The translations under genes were made by a program, and so were the position numbers. Positions 31,280-49,742 of a DNA stretch of 64,000 nucleotides are shown here, one piece after another. Position 1 is the stretch's first letter; every line of letters begins with the position of its first letter. The stretch spans positions 2,592,001 through 2,656,000 of the forward strand of contig CP084167.1 of the NCBI GenBank assembly GCA_021513715.1, given 5' to 3'. The stretch comes from Candidatus Heimdallarchaeum endolithica. Its GTDB lineage: Archaea; Asgardarchaeota; Heimdallarchaeia; Heimdallarchaeales; Heimdallarchaeaceae. A model generated the notes under the pieces. It ran no database searches. It was given only the letters and a program-made list of their open reading frames with translations, and had not been told where the DNA came from.

Positions 31280-32289
31280 TGTATACTCAACTCACATTGG
31301 TAACAAATAAATAGAAGTGGGTTACGTGGGTAAGTGATATATTATGAACAAACCCGAACGTAACCTGGAGAAACTAAGAAAGATTGTGGTTAAAAAAGCT
31401 TTGGAAGGAGAGAAGATAAAAGAGGTAGCTCACAAGTATATGGTGAGTAGGAAGTTTGTGTATAAGTGGTTGAAGAGGTTCAGAGAGAACCCTGAAGGAG
31501 TATGGTGGAAAGATAGATCTTCCAGACCAAAAACTATACACAGGAAAGTAGATGAGGAGTTAAAAGAGAGGATAAGGGAGTTAAGAATAAAACAAGGAAT
31601 GAATGTGGAGAAGATAGCTTATTTGTTGAAGAGAGAAGGAAAAGCACTCTCTCAGACGACAGTGACGAAAGTAATAAAAGAGTTAGGTCTTCCTTTATGG
31701 GTTAATAGAAAAAAGAGGAAAAGACCTCGATACAAGAGTTTTGAACGTCAAAAACCTAACGAACTCTGGCAAATAGATGTGAAAGGACCATTCTGGGTAG
31801 AAGAACAGGGACAACATCTCCATCTCATAACCTTGATAGACGACCACTCACGATTCTGTCTGGGAGCTAAATTCCACCCTTTTGCACCAAAAAAAGAGCA
31901 GATAATAAGTTTGCTAGAGGAAGCAATAAAAGAGTACGGTTACCCCGAGTCTATACTTACTGACAATGGAGCACTCTTCTCTTCCGTTAGAGGAGGAACA
32001 AGTACCTTCTCCCGTTGGTGTCAAACAGAAGGAATAAAACACATCAGAGCTAGAGTTTTTCACCCCGAAACATGTGGAAAAGTAGAAAGACTACATGGGA
32101 CAATCATCCGTGAGATGGAAAGATTAGGTCTAAAATACTGCAACGCAGATCTCTCCTACTACCGCTCTTACTACAATTTTAGTCGTCCTCACCAATCTCT
32201 TAACTTCCTCACCCCAGGAGAAAGATTTATGAATCACCCCTATGTTTCTCTAGTACCCAAAAGTGTAACCCAAGTCTATTGAGTAAACA
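31280..32289 (+). mobile_element. IS481-like insertion sequence, copy 1 (1010 bp)
   Basis: Ends TGTATACTCAA...TTGAGTAAACA; 16-bp direct repeat CCTTTTTTTACTTGGA at 31264-31279 and 32290-32305. Confidence 0.95.
31344..32282 (+). CDS. IS481-family DDE transposase
   Basis: N-terminal HTH, 'WQIDVK', 'IDDHSR', 'LTDNG', 'GKVERLH', 'YNFSRPHQSL'; stop codon lies inside the right terminal repeat. Confidence 0.93.
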   Translation: MNKPERNLEKLRKIVVKKALEGEKIKEVAHKYMVSRKFVYKWLKRFRENPEGVWWKDRSSRPKTIHRKVDEELKERIRELRIKQGMNVEKIAYLLKREGKALSQTTVTKVIKELGLPLWVNRKKRKRPRYKSFERQKPNELWQIDVKGPFWVEEQGQHLHLITLIDDHSRFCLGAKFHPFAPKKEQIISLLEEAIKEYGYPESILTDNGALFSSVRGGTSTFSRWCQTEGIKHIRARVFHPETCGKVERLHGTIIREMERLGLKYCNADLSYYRSYYNFSRPHQSLNFLTPGERFMNHPYVSLVPKSVTQVY

Positions 32290-32450
32290 CCTTTTTTTAC
32301 TTGGAAAATATTCTTTTTAGATTCCTTGGTTGGGAAAACAAATCTAAAATTGATAAACTATTGTTATAAGTATTTAATTATATATAACGATTGATAGTTA
32401 TCTAAAATTTAATATATTTACTTAAAATCCAAAGAGATAGGGGATTAACG

Positions 32451-37973: not shown

Positions 37974-38059
37974 GAGTCCCCAGAAACAATTTTCTCCAGT
38001 AGAAGATAATACCTAAGTAGTCTAATATATTATTTTCCTTATTGCAAGTCACTTGATTG

Positions 38060-39069
38060 TGTTTACTCAATAGACTTGGGTTACACTTTTGGGTACTAGA
38101 GAAACATAGGGGTGATTCATAAATCTTTCTCCTGGGGTGAGGAAGTTAAGAGATTGGTGAGGACGACTAAAATTGTAGTAAGAGCGGTAGTAGGAGAGAT
38201 CTGCGTTGCAGTATTTTAGACCTAATCTTTCCATCTCACGGATGATTGTCCCATGTAGTCTTTCTACTTTTCCACATGTTTCGGGGTGAAAAACTCTAGC
38301 TCTGATGTGTTTTATTCCTTCTGTTTGACACCAACGGGAGAAGGTACTTGTTCCTCCTCTAACGGAAGAGAAGAGTGCTCCATTGTCCGTGAGGATAGAC
38401 TCGGGGTAACCGTACTCTTTTATTGCTTCCTCTAGCAAACTTATTATCTGCTCTTTTTTTGGTGCAAAAGGGTGGAATTCAGCTCCCAGACAGAATCGTG
38501 AGTGGTCGTCTATCAAGGTTATGAGATGGAGATGTTGTCCCTGTTCTTCTACCCAGAATGGTCCTTTCACATCTATTTGCCAGAGTTCGTTAGGTTTTTG
38601 ACGTTCAAAACTCTTGTATCGAGGTCTTTTCCTCTTTTTTCTATTAACCCATAAAGGAAGACCTAACTCTTTTATTACTTTCGTCACTGTCGTCTGAGAG
38701 AGTGCTTTTCCTTCTCTCTTCAACAAATAAGCTATCTTCTCCACATTCATTCCTTGTTTTATTCTTAACTCCCTTATCCTCTCTTTTAACTCCTCATCTA
38801 CTTTCCTGTGTATAGTTTTTGGTCTGGAAGATCTATCTTTCCACCATACTCCTTCAGGGTTCTCTCTGAACCTCTTCAACCACTTATACACAAACTTCCT
38901 ACTCACCATATACTTGTGAGCTACCTCTTTTATCTTCTCTCCTTCCAAAGCTTTTTTAACCACAATCTTTCTTAGTTTCTCCAGGTTACGTTCGGGTTTG
39001 TTCATAATATATCACTTACCCACGTAACCCACTTCTATTTATTTGTTACCAATGTGAGTTGAGTATACA
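38060..39069 (-). mobile_element. IS481-like insertion sequence, copy 2 (1010 bp)
   Basis: Near-identical to copy 1, inverted; 16-bp direct repeat GCAAGTCACTTGATTG at 38044-38059 and 39070-39085. Confidence 0.95.
38067..39005 (-). CDS. IS481-family DDE transposase
   Basis: 312 aa; differs from copy 1 by one residue (LGAKF vs LGAEF). Confidence 0.93.
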   Translation of the reverse strand: MNKPERNLEKLRKIVVKKALEGEKIKEVAHKYMVSRKFVYKWLKRFRENPEGVWWKDRSSRPKTIHRKVDEELKERIRELRIKQGMNVEKIAYLLKREGKALSQTTVTKVIKELGLPLWVNRKKRKRPRYKSFERQKPNELWQIDVKGPFWVEEQGQHLHLITLIDDHSRFCLGAEFHPFAPKKEQIISLLEEAIKEYGYPESILTDNGALFSSVRGGTSTFSRWCQTEGIKHIRARVFHPETCGKVERLHGTIIREMERLGLKYCNADLSYYRSYYNFSRPHQSLNFLTPGERFMNHPYVSLVPKSVTQVY

Positions 39070-39134
39070 GCAAGTCACTTGATTGTAAAAAGTTTATATA
39101 CCTTAAAGAGAAAAAAAACTTTTAAAAAAATAAA

Positions 39135-39671
39135 CTAAAGTAGTTTTTTTGATTTTGCTACATACCAACCTAAAATCGTAGCTCCGTGAATAATCTTGTT
39201 ATTCTGTATTAATTCTTCAACTTCCGTTTTTGAAAATTCTAAAACATCTATAAATTCATCTTCGTCTAGATTTTGTTTACCCTCTTTTTCTACAATAGCA
39301 AAATAAAGATGTCCCCAACTACTACTGAAAGCAACAGGATGCCAAGTTAGTAAAGATTCAATAGAAACTACTTTGTAACCAGTTTCTTCCCTTACTTCTC
39401 TTTTTGCAGAGCGAATTGGGTCTTCTTCTGGCTCTATAAGCCCTGCAGGAATCTCAATACTCATACTAGTCCAAGGGTATCTGTACTGTTTTATCATAAT
39501 TAAGTTTTTATCCTTCGTCATGCATACAGTGGCAGTGAAGTTTTTACTTTCAACAACAGAAAATTCTACTTCTTTGCCTTTTGGATTCTGTACTTTATCA
39601 TTTCTTACCTTGAGATAATTATTCGAATAAACTTCATTTTTATTTATGCATATCCAGTTGCTTATGTCCAT
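39135..39671 (-). CDS. Nudix hydrolase (ADP-ribose pyrophosphatase-like)
   Basis: Nudix box 'GLIEPEEDPIRSAKREVREETG', 'QYRYP', 'LDEDEFI'. Confidence 0.9.
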   Translation of the reverse strand: MDISNWICINKNEVYSNNYLKVRNDKVQNPKGKEVEFSVVESKNFTATVCMTKDKNLIMIKQYRYPWTSMSIEIPAGLIEPEEDPIRSAKREVREETGYKVVSIESLLTWHPVAFSSSWGHLYFAIVEKEGKQNLDEDEFIDVLEFSKTEVEELIQNNKIIHGATILGWYVAKSKKLL

Positions 39672-39706
39672 GAGATACTTTTTTACTTAAAAAATTAAAT
39701 TTTTAG

Positions 39707-40058
39707 TTTGTGGAGTTATTAGACCAATAACAACCTGAAACACATTTGCATAAATAAAGAATACAAGATATTGGGGAGTGTAACAACTTTTCCGCTGTCT
39801 TTATATATTTAATTCTCATTTATCTAATGTCTTGAGCTATATGCTTAAAGACGTAGGTTTCATTTCTACGACACCCGGTCTTTCCTTTGGGGGTTATGAG
39901 TGCCCGGGATCAGGAGATGAACCCCTTAGAGAACTTAATTAAGACTGTGTCTTTCATGTTCTCTTAAGCAAGTCTTCACAACATTTGCTATGTTTATTGA
40001 CTGGTTGGGTAGAGTCCTGAAGAAATTAAGTAAAATTTCAACTCATTAGTATCACAAA
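39707..40058. ncRNA. Candidate structured non-coding RNA, family unassigned
   Basis: ORF-free 413-bp gap with a G+C-richer core, several stem-loops, a possible pseudoknot and complementary ends. Confidence 0.45.
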
Positions 40059-46044: not shown

Positions 46045-47487
46045 CTATTCTTTCACTCCTGTTTTCAAAGGAGGAAGTTCAGAAAAACGTTCAAAAAGAC
46101 GCCTATAGTCAATACTTGATTGAATTAATTCAATATGTGTTCCGTGAGCAACAAGCTTTCCTTTTTTTAAAATGATTATTTGATCTGCATTTTTTATAGT
46201 AGCTAAACGATGAGTAATAATGAAAGTTGTTCTCTCCTTTAATACATTAGCAATAGCAATCTGTATCTCTCTTTCTGTTTCAGCATCAATAGCACTACTA
46301 GCATCATCAAAAATTAAGATTTTTGGATTTCCCAATAAAGCACGAGCAATAGCAATTCTTTGTTTTTGCCCTCCAGAAAGCTTAACTCCTCTTTCTCCAA
46401 CAATCGTATCATATCCTTCTTCAAATGACATAATAAAATCATGCGCTTGAGCCAACTTTGCAGCGTGTTCAATTTCTTCTTGACTAGCTTGCGGTTTTCC
46501 ATAAGCAATATTTTCTCTTATTGTCTTGCTAAAAAGAAAAATATCTTGTTCTATAGCACCTATATTTTTCCTTAGACTAGACAAACTCATCTCTCTTAGG
46601 TCAATACCATCGATGGTTATTCTGCCCTCTGTAGGGTCATAGAAACGCATTATTAGTTTAATCAATGTAGATTTTCCAGAACCAGGAGAACCGATAATAG
46701 CTATAGTAGACCCTGCAGGAACATGAAGATCGATACGATCAAGAGTTTTCTCATTAGTATTGTTTCCATTGTAAGAAAAAGAAACATTTTCAAAAACAAT
46801 TTCACCTTTTGTTTCTAACCATTCTATAGGGATAATGGCTTCTGGAACGTATTCTTGTCTAGTTTTCATATTGTAAATTCTTTTTGCTGCAGCCATACCA
46901 ATTTGAAATTGAGTACTGGCCCAACCTAATTGCCATGTGGGAGAGTTCAAAGTCATTGCTAACATTACAAAAGAAACTAGTTGCGAAAGTGATATTCTCC
47001 CTTTTGTTACTTCAAAACTACCCCATAGAAAACTAAAAGCTATAACTAAAATAGTTATTAGAATAGGATAATACTTTGTGCTTAGTATTCCTCTTTGTGT
47101 ATTAATCTCTCGAAGCTTATCTGCTTGTATGTCAAAATAATTAATCTCTTCGTCCTCTTTCACAAAACTTCTGATTATTCTAATACCTGTTACACTCTCT
47201 TGTAAGAATTCATTAAGTCTGCTGTTCTGTTCAACTTGAGCTTTAGAAATTGGTTGTAATTTCTTGTTAAAATCATAAATTGTAATAATATAAAATGGTA
47301 ATGCAAAAACAAGAATTAGAGTAAGTTTTGGGCTGATATAAATCATAAGAGAAACAGAAAATAATATCGTAAAAAAACCTTCAAGTAAAAATTTTAACCC
47401 TGGAGAAATGAAGATATTCATCTGACGGGTGTCGTAAGTGGCACGAGCCATGATATCTCCAATACGGACTCGATCATGAAACTCATG

Positions 47488-47514
47488 ATTTACTTTTTGC
47501 GAAGTTTGTCGAAC
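47488..47514 (+). repeat. Terminal inverted repeat (tnpB 3' side)
   Basis: ATTTACTTTTTGCGAAGTTTGTCGAAC. Confidence 0.9.
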
Positions 47515-47724
47515 TTAGTCTTTCAAGAAAAAAACAAAGAAAGAGAATTGTTAGTTTCTTGAGAACTTAATCCTAACATACAATGAAAGAAGAAGGATTA
47601 AGGCAGACGTCATACACGAATCGGGGGAATCATAAAGAAGAGAAGATGTTCTCTTCACTCCACGAGAGACAAAAAAGAAAGAATAACTAGCCCTAAAATA
47701 GAGAAATTATCTTTCTTTTTGTCT
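47488..47724 (-). ncRNA. Candidate omegaRNA (TnpB guide RNA scaffold)
   Basis: Non-coding stretch between tnpB stop and element end, with four stem-loops (47523-47562, 47566-47602, 47637-47656, 47667-47724). Confidence 0.6.
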
Positions 47725-49180
47725 ACTGGGACTGCAACCAATGGCTGAGTCCTCGGCAAACAGTATAATGCGTAAGACTAAACTTTTGACCAGTAAAGTA
47801 ATCAGTAATAGTTGTAACACGGGGACGAAAAAGATGACTAAGGAACTTACGGGCAATATTTCTAGCCCCTGTTAAATCAGAGTGGTAAGTATAGTTACAA
47901 AAGGGACAGTGTATTAATCCTCTGACGGGACGAGAAACTTCTTTTCCACAACGGGAACAATGAGAAGATGTTCCTCTTTCGTCTATTATAAGAATACGAT
48001 GAGGAGCAAAACCTCTTAATATCAATGCTCGACGGAGAAGAGAAAGAACTAAAGAAAAATTCCACTGGTGAAGTTTTCTGCGAAAATAACGAGTATTTTT
48101 ACCTTTCCCTTTTTCTTTTCCTTTTCTGACATTTTTGGGGTAACCTACGACGACGAAAAGGTCATACATTTGAGCATAGGTCCCTATCGTCCGCACAACG
48201 TCGTTTATAAATTGGTGAATATAGGACTGTTTAACGTTTCTATATCTCCGACGAAGATATCCAAGAAAACGATAAATTTGGTGTTTTTTACCCGACTGGT
48301 CATTTAAAGCCGCTTTCCTCTGAAGACGGGAAAACTTGAGTTTATATCTGTGATTGATTCTATTCCACTGTTTGGTATACCAGAATTTTATCTCTTTGCT
48401 TGTTAACTTCTTTTTGGGAGTTAGTAACACTCCTACAGCAGGAATGTTTATCCCTAGATCTATCCCCAGCACAGCTGGGGGAAGAGAAGAAGAATTATTA
48501 ACTGAATAAGAAAAAGAAGAAGGAGGAAGAACTTCTAATTGAAAATATACCCACCACTCACTTGTAGAACGTTTATATCTCAGTTCTAAACTTTTTATCT
48601 GTCCTTTCTTTAACTCTTTCTGGTGGAAAGTGCTCATCTCTAAAGGTAACCACAATCGTTGATGATACCTTGTTTTTCTTTTCCACGTGTCTAATGAGTC
48701 TCTTATTCCTACCCACCAACGAGAAATAGAGTTATTTTTCTCTTTTGGTAAATTAGTAAGAATAAACCTATTCTTATTGATTAGTTGTCTTCGGGGTCTC
48801 TTTTTTGGAGGACGAGTGGCTTCAGGTCTATATCCTTGCTCGTACAGTTGTACTGCTATATCTCTACACTCTTGAAACTCATCATGAGAACAATATGGAA
48901 ACATCTTTTTAAGGTCATGAGGAACAGTCTCTCTTCGCTCTTCTACTTTTTTTAGCCTTGATGTTGTCAATGTTAGTTCATCTAGTTTTCCTCTATGTAC
49001 TCTTATTTCTCCTTTCTTTGTTTTCATACACAGTCTTCTTCTGTTGTGATGTATAATTTTTACATATTTTTCTATTATCCTTGTGTCTCTCCCTGTTATT
49101 CTCCTTAATCTTTCCTTTTTTCTCCTCGTCAAAACTTCATTTTTTATTTTTACTTTCAAAGTTTTGACTATCTTCTCCAT
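47723..49180 (-). CDS. tnpB: TnpB-family RNA-guided endonuclease with rearranged RuvC site
   Basis: RuvC-I 'VLGIDLGIN'; Gly at the usual RuvC-II position ('VVVGYP'); 'IIDERGTSSHCSRC'; Zn finger CSRC/CPFC; RuvC-III 'HSDLTGARNI'. Confidence 0.92.
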   Translation of the reverse strand: MEKIVKTLKVKIKNEVLTRRKKERLRRITGRDTRIIEKYVKIIHHNRRRLCMKTKKGEIRVHRGKLDELTLTTSRLKKVEERRETVPHDLKKMFPYCSHDEFQECRDIAVQLYEQGYRPEATRPPKKRPRRQLINKNRFILTNLPKEKNNSISRWWVGIRDSLDTWKRKTRYHQRLWLPLEMSTFHQKELKKGQIKSLELRYKRSTSEWWVYFQLEVLPPSSFSYSVNNSSSLPPAVLGIDLGINIPAVGVLLTPKKKLTSKEIKFWYTKQWNRINHRYKLKFSRLQRKAALNDQSGKKHQIYRFLGYLRRRYRNVKQSYIHQFINDVVRTIGTYAQMYDLFVVVGYPKNVRKGKEKGKGKNTRYFRRKLHQWNFSLVLSLLRRALILRGFAPHRILIIDERGTSSHCSRCGKEVSRPVRGLIHCPFCNYTYHSDLTGARNIARKFLSHLFRPRVTTITDYFTGQKFSLTHYTVCRGLSHWLQSQ

Positions 49181-49293
49181 CTTTTTTCCTCTTCTTTTCC
49201 TTTTTTTCTTTTTCTTCTCTTCATTTATTTCTACTATTTTTTCTTATAAAAAGTCTCTTTTTTTTCTTTTTCATCCATACTCTCTATCCTAAT

Positions 49294-49320
49294 GTTCGCA
49301 AAATTACGCAAAAAGTAAAG
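49294..49320 (-). repeat. Terminal inverted repeat (tnpB 5' side)
   Basis: Reverse complement reads CTTTACTTTTTGCGTAATTTTGCGAAC. Confidence 0.9.
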
Positions 49321-49742
49321 CATGGCTCTTTTTTAGCATATCATCATAAAATTCTTCTGTAACATTTTTTGTCACTTTGTGTGCTATAACCTCATTTGTA
49401 TAACTCTGTGTAAAATCAGCTAAAGTGCGAATAATTCCCGCTAAAGCAATTAATAAAGCAGTTTTTATAATTTCTAGAAACGAACTATTTTCTTTTGCTA
49501 ACTCATCAAAAATATCCCCAATTAACATAGGTGTAAAAGATACAGTAGCAATAAAGAAAATAAGGAAAAAAACCATAATACTTACTAGTTTCTTTTCTCT
49601 CAATATATGCTTAAATAACCATCTTTTATAACCCATATACAAACCTGCAATTTAATCTTATTCAAATACCGTTGATTAATCTTCTTTAAAACTTTTTTTT
49701 TAATGCATCTTTTTTACAATAAATAATAGTTTGAAGAGTTTT

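Follow-up and report, generated by a model that had tools for sequence, protein, structure and literature searches.

We found that the structured sequence at the right end of a tnpB-only mobile element in Candidatus Heimdallarchaeum endolithica is probably the omegaRNA of the adjacent TnpB, with a pseudoknotted scaffold, a predicted CCAT TAM that would leave the element itself spared, and proposed movement in trans through an AT core. The element occupies positions 47485-49321 of the window (the whole 64,000-nucleotide stretch that was analysed; features lie on its minus strand unless stated otherwise), its first base being the G at 49321 and its last the C at 47487, followed by the AT core at 47485-47486. 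In the mechanism that we propose, transcription across tnpB and on through the right end would give an RNA that is trimmed to a scaffold of ~240-270 nt plus guide, the last six bases of the scaffold would pair with the P2 loop (a pairing borne out by covariation), and the guide would start at the first variable host base, 47484. By analogy with work on IS605 and IS607, TnpB would cut 5'-CCAT followed by a match to the guide, which is the empty ABC allele left after excision or present on the sister chromosome, and repair from the filled copy would restore the element. Flank statistics suggest that the TCAT of the filled allele would not be read as a TAM, sparing self, and the element would move via its 2-bp AT core with the help of a trans-acting enzyme. 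We regard the omegaRNA as probably real and functional, and as belonging to a known kind of system carried by a variant element.

The element interrupts an ABC half-transporter gene, the 3' part of which lies at 46045-47484 and the 5' part at 49322-49642; the rejoined frame of 589 aa has the length of the intact orthologue, which in the sister genome, Ca. Heimdallarchaeum aukensis, encodes 589 aa and contains a single CATG. As the original prediction had noted, CATG is present at each junction. We excluded a 4-bp CATG duplication, given that the fourth bases on the left and right often differ and one empty site reads CATA. Comparison of empty and filled sites assigned the G after CAT on the left (locus L114) and the C of CAT on the right (locus L119) to the element, so that only AT is common to both junctions. 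These two bases may be the core of a recombination reaction or may have been duplicated on insertion, and the two cases would look alike. Insertion through a shared core dinucleotide is the hallmark used for IS607, with AT as the core here, and AT on both sides combined with terminal inverted repeats also corresponds to the short duplication of TnpB elements mobilised by DDE enzymes. Right junctions read T-CAT-N with N variable. At 9 of 43 left junctions the fourth base was A instead of G, weakly associated (p 0.04) with an A on the right side, and this A may be a carry-over from a former site.

The left end (49294-49321) is an imperfect inverted repeat of the right end (84% over 31 nt in the window copy) that includes two T-run-GCG units ~10 nt apart, and inverted ends were found in all element subfamilies. 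A TATA-like box (49243-49252) lies upstream of tnpB, and the RNA-only mini-elements of relatives retain a similar box. We identified 14 two-ended copies of the tnpB element in this genome, belonging to three subfamilies, plus fragments; of 30 further genomes from the same family, 16 contain relatives. In several sister copies tnpB is frameshifted. Orientations of the insertions relative to genes were mixed, which ruled out an intron or splicing reading of the IStron type, and Rfam returned no group I intron match at the element. One chimeric copy (genome 3321689-3323548) combines the left end and N-terminus of one subfamily with the C-terminus and RNA of the other, and at H. aukensis locus L046 the tnpB 3' end, RNA and guide are tandemly duplicated, placing two identical right ends ~720 bp apart. 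The window also contains two copies of a 22-copy IS481-like element, at ~31280-32290 and 38054-39091 (genome 2623280-2624290 and 2630054-2631091).

The tnpB gene (47723-49180) encodes a 485-aa protein with a C4 zinc finger and a rearranged RuvC (D241, E401 and D435, with G346 in the place of the canonical Glu), and so shows the TnpB fold with RuvC triad and zinc finger by which OMEGA nucleases are recognised; its score of 84.5 against the NCBIfam guided_TnpB profile lies below the cut-off of 100. The catalytic triad (D241, E401, D435) is invariant in 44 homologues, and G346 and E401 are likewise invariant, matching the description of RIIr/TnpB2 proteins, in which the Glu is replaced and an alternative Glu lies ~45-55 residues on, an arrangement that is active in tested cases (PMC10530073). 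A structure model (pLDDT 84.5) gave Cas12f and TnpB as best matches (Z 19.2, rmsd 5.7, 368 aligned), compared with Fanzor2 at Z 15.3 (rmsd 5.7, 362 aligned); since the fold is closer to Cas12f/TnpB than to Fanzor2, it indicates no special Fanzor ancestry. Between copies, synonymous codon differences exceed replacements.

The original prediction had placed a candidate omegaRNA with four stem-loops at the element boundary and had named covariation in homologous loci as a check. All four stem-loops proved to be perfect reverse complements at the positions given there (for the long stem a base-by-base check covered the outer 9 bp and the remainder was taken from the fold), and we found a conserved, covarying, omegaRNA-like structure ending there, with helices covarying across five sequence groups. 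Missing from the first reading were the pseudoknot, the helices P2a and P3 on the outside of their arms, and a hairpin within the last tnpB codons. The predicted scaffold spans 47485-47752, its 5' limit being inferred from the hairpin inside tnpB (47729-47752). It comprises P1 (47667-47724), a long hairpin with a conserved base and a variable tip; P2 (47622-47664), with an outer helix, P2a (47660-47664 with 47622-47626), and an inner hairpin (47637-47656); and the P3 arm (47508-47620), consisting of P3a (47616-47620 with 47508-47512), a K-turn-like loop and P3b (47605-47608 with 47518-47521), which bears P4 (47566-47602) and P5 (47523-47562). The stretch from the tnpB stop to the element end had been given as 235 nt; the scaffold does continue to the end, but since it includes CAT it reaches 47485, 238 nt past the stop.

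Minus-strand folding was much stronger than that of shuffled sequences (z -4.6, 0/200 shuffles), plus-strand folding being weaker (z -2.8), and no Rfam family reached its gathering score in the region. When the helix model was laid over homologues, the share of cells that paired was 97% for 22 genus-level copies and 95% for 11 distant copies, compared with 34-56% in slid controls, counts that overstate independence because the copies are related. The core helices P2a, P3a and P3b exchange pair types among the five groups, and hairpin stems are maintained while arm and loop lengths vary. Covariance models recovered the mini-elements and a third group; a model of the distant group did not match the RNA of the window copy, nor did the reverse search give a match, and the two are connected via the mini-elements and an anchored helix table. 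In the window copy P2a (4/5 pairs) and P3a (3/5 pairs) fall short of the consensus. The guide of this copy is able to pair back onto the end of the scaffold, more strongly (-5.5 kcal/mol) than in any other of 19 copies, and the copy may be less active for that reason. The K-turn-like loop of P3 (AUGA opposite GAG; 47508-47521 and 47605-47620), in which the window copy has AAG for GAG, is a possible L7Ae site.

The scaffold end is defined by a 6-bp pseudoknot between AUGAUU in the P2 internal loop (47628-47633) and AAUCAU, the last six bases of the scaffold (47485-47490), with 6/6 pairs in 71 of 74 homologues. Its support consists of two compensatory events, pair 5 being U-A in the window group and G-C in the others and pair 3 being A-U in one lineage and G-C elsewhere; two further changes are wobbles, and one subfamily (2 copies) has a mismatch. 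Conservation falls from ~2 bits to 0.6 and then 0.1 past CAT. TnpB RNAs generally have a pseudoknot in this position (10.1101/2023.11.20.567912). As the pseudoknot takes the last six bases, we place the scaffold end at CAU (47485) and the guide start at 47484, at the G of CATG; a guide beginning with the whole of CATG, as originally proposed, is not compatible with this, given that CAT closes the pseudoknot. With CAT in the scaffold, the TAM in turn would end in CAT. The predicted guide covers 47465-47484 of the right host flank, a length of 16-20 nt being assumed from other TnpBs. When the guides were searched against other sites of the genome, no site combined a TAM with a match of fewer than 4 mismatches over 16 positions. 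Four viral pattern matches were obtained, of which the one that we read diverges directly after the pattern and is likely a chance match, and we found no close TnpB relative on viral contigs.

The left host flank, CCAT (49322-49325, including the AT core), is the predicted empty-site TAM according to the flank and the empty-site comparison. The earlier proposal that the empty ABC allele is the natural target is supported. Across 62 insertions the base before the target CAT was T in only 2, compared with a genome background of 35% (p ~1e-9). Right ends carry T before CAT, where it forms pseudoknot pair 4, an observation that is free of bias only in this genome, the right-end T of homologues having been partly built into the search pattern. 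The preferred flank base is C in the subfamily of the window copy and A or G in another. We found that it is tracked by residue 100 of TnpB (Asp in the window copy, codon 48881-48883), with Asp going with C in 13 of 13 cases and Asn with A or G in 21 of 23 (the exceptions being one C and one T). The same Asp/Asn split recurs in a separate branch whose left ends are alike, and the link as a whole rests on about two switches. By profile, residue 100 aligns to the start of the Cas12f REC helix, and residues 88-96 of AsCas12f1 contact the PAM duplex (10.1101/2023.07.03.547593); at the level of profiles, residue 100 would fall in this probable PAM-contacting region.

The original prediction had pointed out a self-targeting puzzle, namely that CATG also stands beside the guide-matching DNA of the filled allele, and had offered two ways out, a guide starting within CATG or a difference in the bases 5' of it. 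Both apply jointly, as the guide starts within CATG and the 5' base is C in the target and T at the right end. Going by sequence comparison, we predict CCAT as the TAM here and expect the TCAT of the filled allele to be spared, because its T is fixed by the pseudoknot and, as the flank statistics suggest, would not be read as part of a TAM. The puzzle can be considered resolved in silico, and a precedent has been published for IS607 TnpBs. In ISXfa1 the same difficulty is overcome by GGG versus CGG, and the authors of that work propose selection by TnpB for insertions that carry a TAM (10.1101/2023.08.09.552727).

A homologous omegaRNA with like ends is also carried by an RNA-only mini-element of 378 bp in the window (39669-40046, plus strand), one of 18 two-ended copies in this genome of a family of 364-382 bp. 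In three other genomes tnpB has been deleted with the TATA box, the RNA and both ends retained, which is compatible with an RNA able to act alone. In this genome, where both TnpB types occur, mini-elements are flanked variously by C, A or G, and where only Asn types were seen they are flanked by A or G, the pattern predicted if they are guarded in trans; some 20 RNA-only mini-elements probably borrow TnpB in this way. The RNA of the window mini-element is nearer to the distant homologue group than to the RNAs of this genome's TnpBs, and no TnpB of that group was found here.

We considered several other explanations. It is extremely improbable that the hairpins act in DNA recombination, termination or mRNA stability and not as a guide scaffold: the last 30 nt do double as a recombination end and one terminator-like match was found at P2b, at chance level (a sigma-70 scan being uninformative for archaea), but the structure tolerates G-U pairs and is strand-biased, its pseudoknot coincides precisely with the boundary, like that of TnpB RNAs already known, and the RNA is kept behind a promoter after loss of tnpB. 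The RNA could instead be real and the flank bias come from the mobilising enzyme, with a TAM of only CAT or shorter and self avoided otherwise (by protein-covered ends or by inactivity of this copy's RNA). Transposase preference matches the TAM in IS605 and IS607 (10.1101/2023.11.20.567912, 10.1101/2023.08.09.552727), and element ends differ between subfamilies together with TnpB, so that distinct transposases are possible. In the distant group, however, left ends are alike yet the flank base follows the TnpB residue, and a fragment with the left end of the window subfamily but Asn100 has T, not C, and we consider this account unlikely.

The link between residue and flank would also arise if TnpB helped to choose the insertion site by binding the TAM and recruiting a host recombinase, so that the bias would be set when the element inserts, instead of emerging as unguarded copies are lost later. 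That the TnpB residue predicts the flank base agrees with this, as does the outcome of the mobiliser search, in which the two closed genomes holding young copies yielded no transposase with matching ends. Neither searches for resolvases, Y1 and tyrosine recombinases, IS607 TnpA, Cas1, IS630 and DDE_Tnp_4 nor a repeat census, end-motif scans and a left-end search in 31 genomes recovered a mobiliser with matching ends. HTH-serine recombinase TnpA (IS607) was not detected above the cut-off in this genome or in H. aukensis, and IS607 elements of relatives have ends that differ from those of the tnpB element; the single Y1 gene of this genome belongs to another element, IS630 and DDE_Tnp_4 transposases were not found in five genomes, and none of the four multi-copy DDE families of this genome has matching ends. 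Two further candidates were rejected, a 27-copy IS with CATG in its ends (other ends, ~8-bp duplications) and a HerA-like ATPase, which is not a transposase. The latter gene, or variable 3' remnants, precedes tnpB in one Heimdall branch (L031-L035, L132-L147), which has ~450 nt of conserved structured sequence before tnpB and in which no fixed left end was found. This genome does encode two stand-alone serine recombinases of 240-250 aa (genome 316728-317450 and 405348-406097) with weak XisF/Ccr similarity and like-sized matches across the family, and joined element ends would make a long imperfect palindrome around AT; a 2-bp core with an inverted arm on either side would suit a serine recombinase, and the data fit a DDE enzyme with an AT duplication too. 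Against a role of TnpB in site choice, we found no link between these recombinases and the element ends, at least one insertion lies at GAT instead of CAT, TnpB differs from Cas12k in having an intact nuclease site, and retention of TAM-bearing insertions, as proposed for IS607 (10.1101/2023.08.09.552727), gives the same bias; we therefore hold recruitment at insertion to be highly improbable. Formulated more broadly, the idea is that an element with no transposase of its own relies on TnpB to read the TAM and steer a host stand-alone serine recombinase, which would insert it and its RNA-only derivatives at AT cores; we think this distinctly unlikely, and if true it would mean that the nuclease both guards and places the element.

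Under the preferred reading, a TnpB reading CCAT and guided by its own right-end RNA, the locus offers an Asgard-specific TnpB whose scaffold end, guide start and TAM are predicted and can be put to the test, together with a candidate for a natural switch between CCAT and RCAT that involves a single residue and could serve TAM retuning. The link between a nuclease residue and insertion flanks provides genomic evidence for an influence of TnpB on where its elements are retained, and the element joins IS607-like core logic to inverted ends without a recognisable transposase in two closed genomes.

The combination of TnpB with a right-end RNA and a flank-derived guide is shared with the TnpBs of IS200/IS605 elements (ISDra2). 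IS605 ends carry subterminal hairpins and are not known to have inverted repeats or a shared core. The asymmetric hairpin ends, junctions with nothing shared and Y1 TnpA by which IS200/IS605 elements are recognised do not describe the element studied here. DDE-associated TnpBs (DDE-1 to DDE-6, PMC10691335) resemble it in having inverted ends, solo TnpB moved in trans and stand-alone omegaRNAs, and differ in that the shared bases are TA there and AT here, with no IS630 or DDE_Tnp_4 transposase found in five genomes. As in RuvC-II-rearranged TnpBs (TnpB2, RIIr, TvTnpB; PMC10530073, PMC10691335) and Fanzors, a Gly occupies the Glu site and an invariant Glu precedes the zinc finger; TvTnpB differs in residing in IS605 with a TAM of TGAC. 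Among the Asgard aCas1-linked TnpBs (Cas1H-Asgard-1/2, PMC10691335), the motif GTTCACTCA is shared by thorarchaeal relatives of the window TnpB (30-35% identity); its ACTCA matches the Heimdall scaffold end, and the full motif occurs only in the thorarchaeal relatives. Unlike Cas1H-Asgard, the Heimdall elements are small and mobile with inverted ends, and we found no aCas1 near tnpB at any locus examined and no Cas1 match in the neighbouring giant gene that we scanned. In Thorarchaeota (L148-L199) the relatives stand head-to-head with a conserved gene of ~1400-1600 aa that has no Pfam match (24 loci), with a short repeat on both sides of tnpB and the reverse complement of GTTCACTCA upstream of it, an arrangement that suggests a split or paired RNA.

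Both the concept of an omegaRNA and the logic of self-avoidance have been published before, and the closest parallels are the IS607 TnpBs of ISXfa1 (10.1101/2023.08.09.552727) and CboIStron (10.1101/2023.11.20.567912). The core is GG there and AT here, the scaffold measures 144 nt compared with ~240-270 nt, and no intron is involved here; RuvC-II is canonical in ISXfa1 and rearranged in the Heimdall protein. IS607 elements are said to lack inverted repeats, whereas the ends here are inverted, and no TnpA-S was found in cis or in the genome. In common with both, the element has a 2-bp core at both junctions that ends scaffold and TAM alike, a base 5' of the shared part that would spare self, and a pseudoknot at the 3' end of the scaffold.
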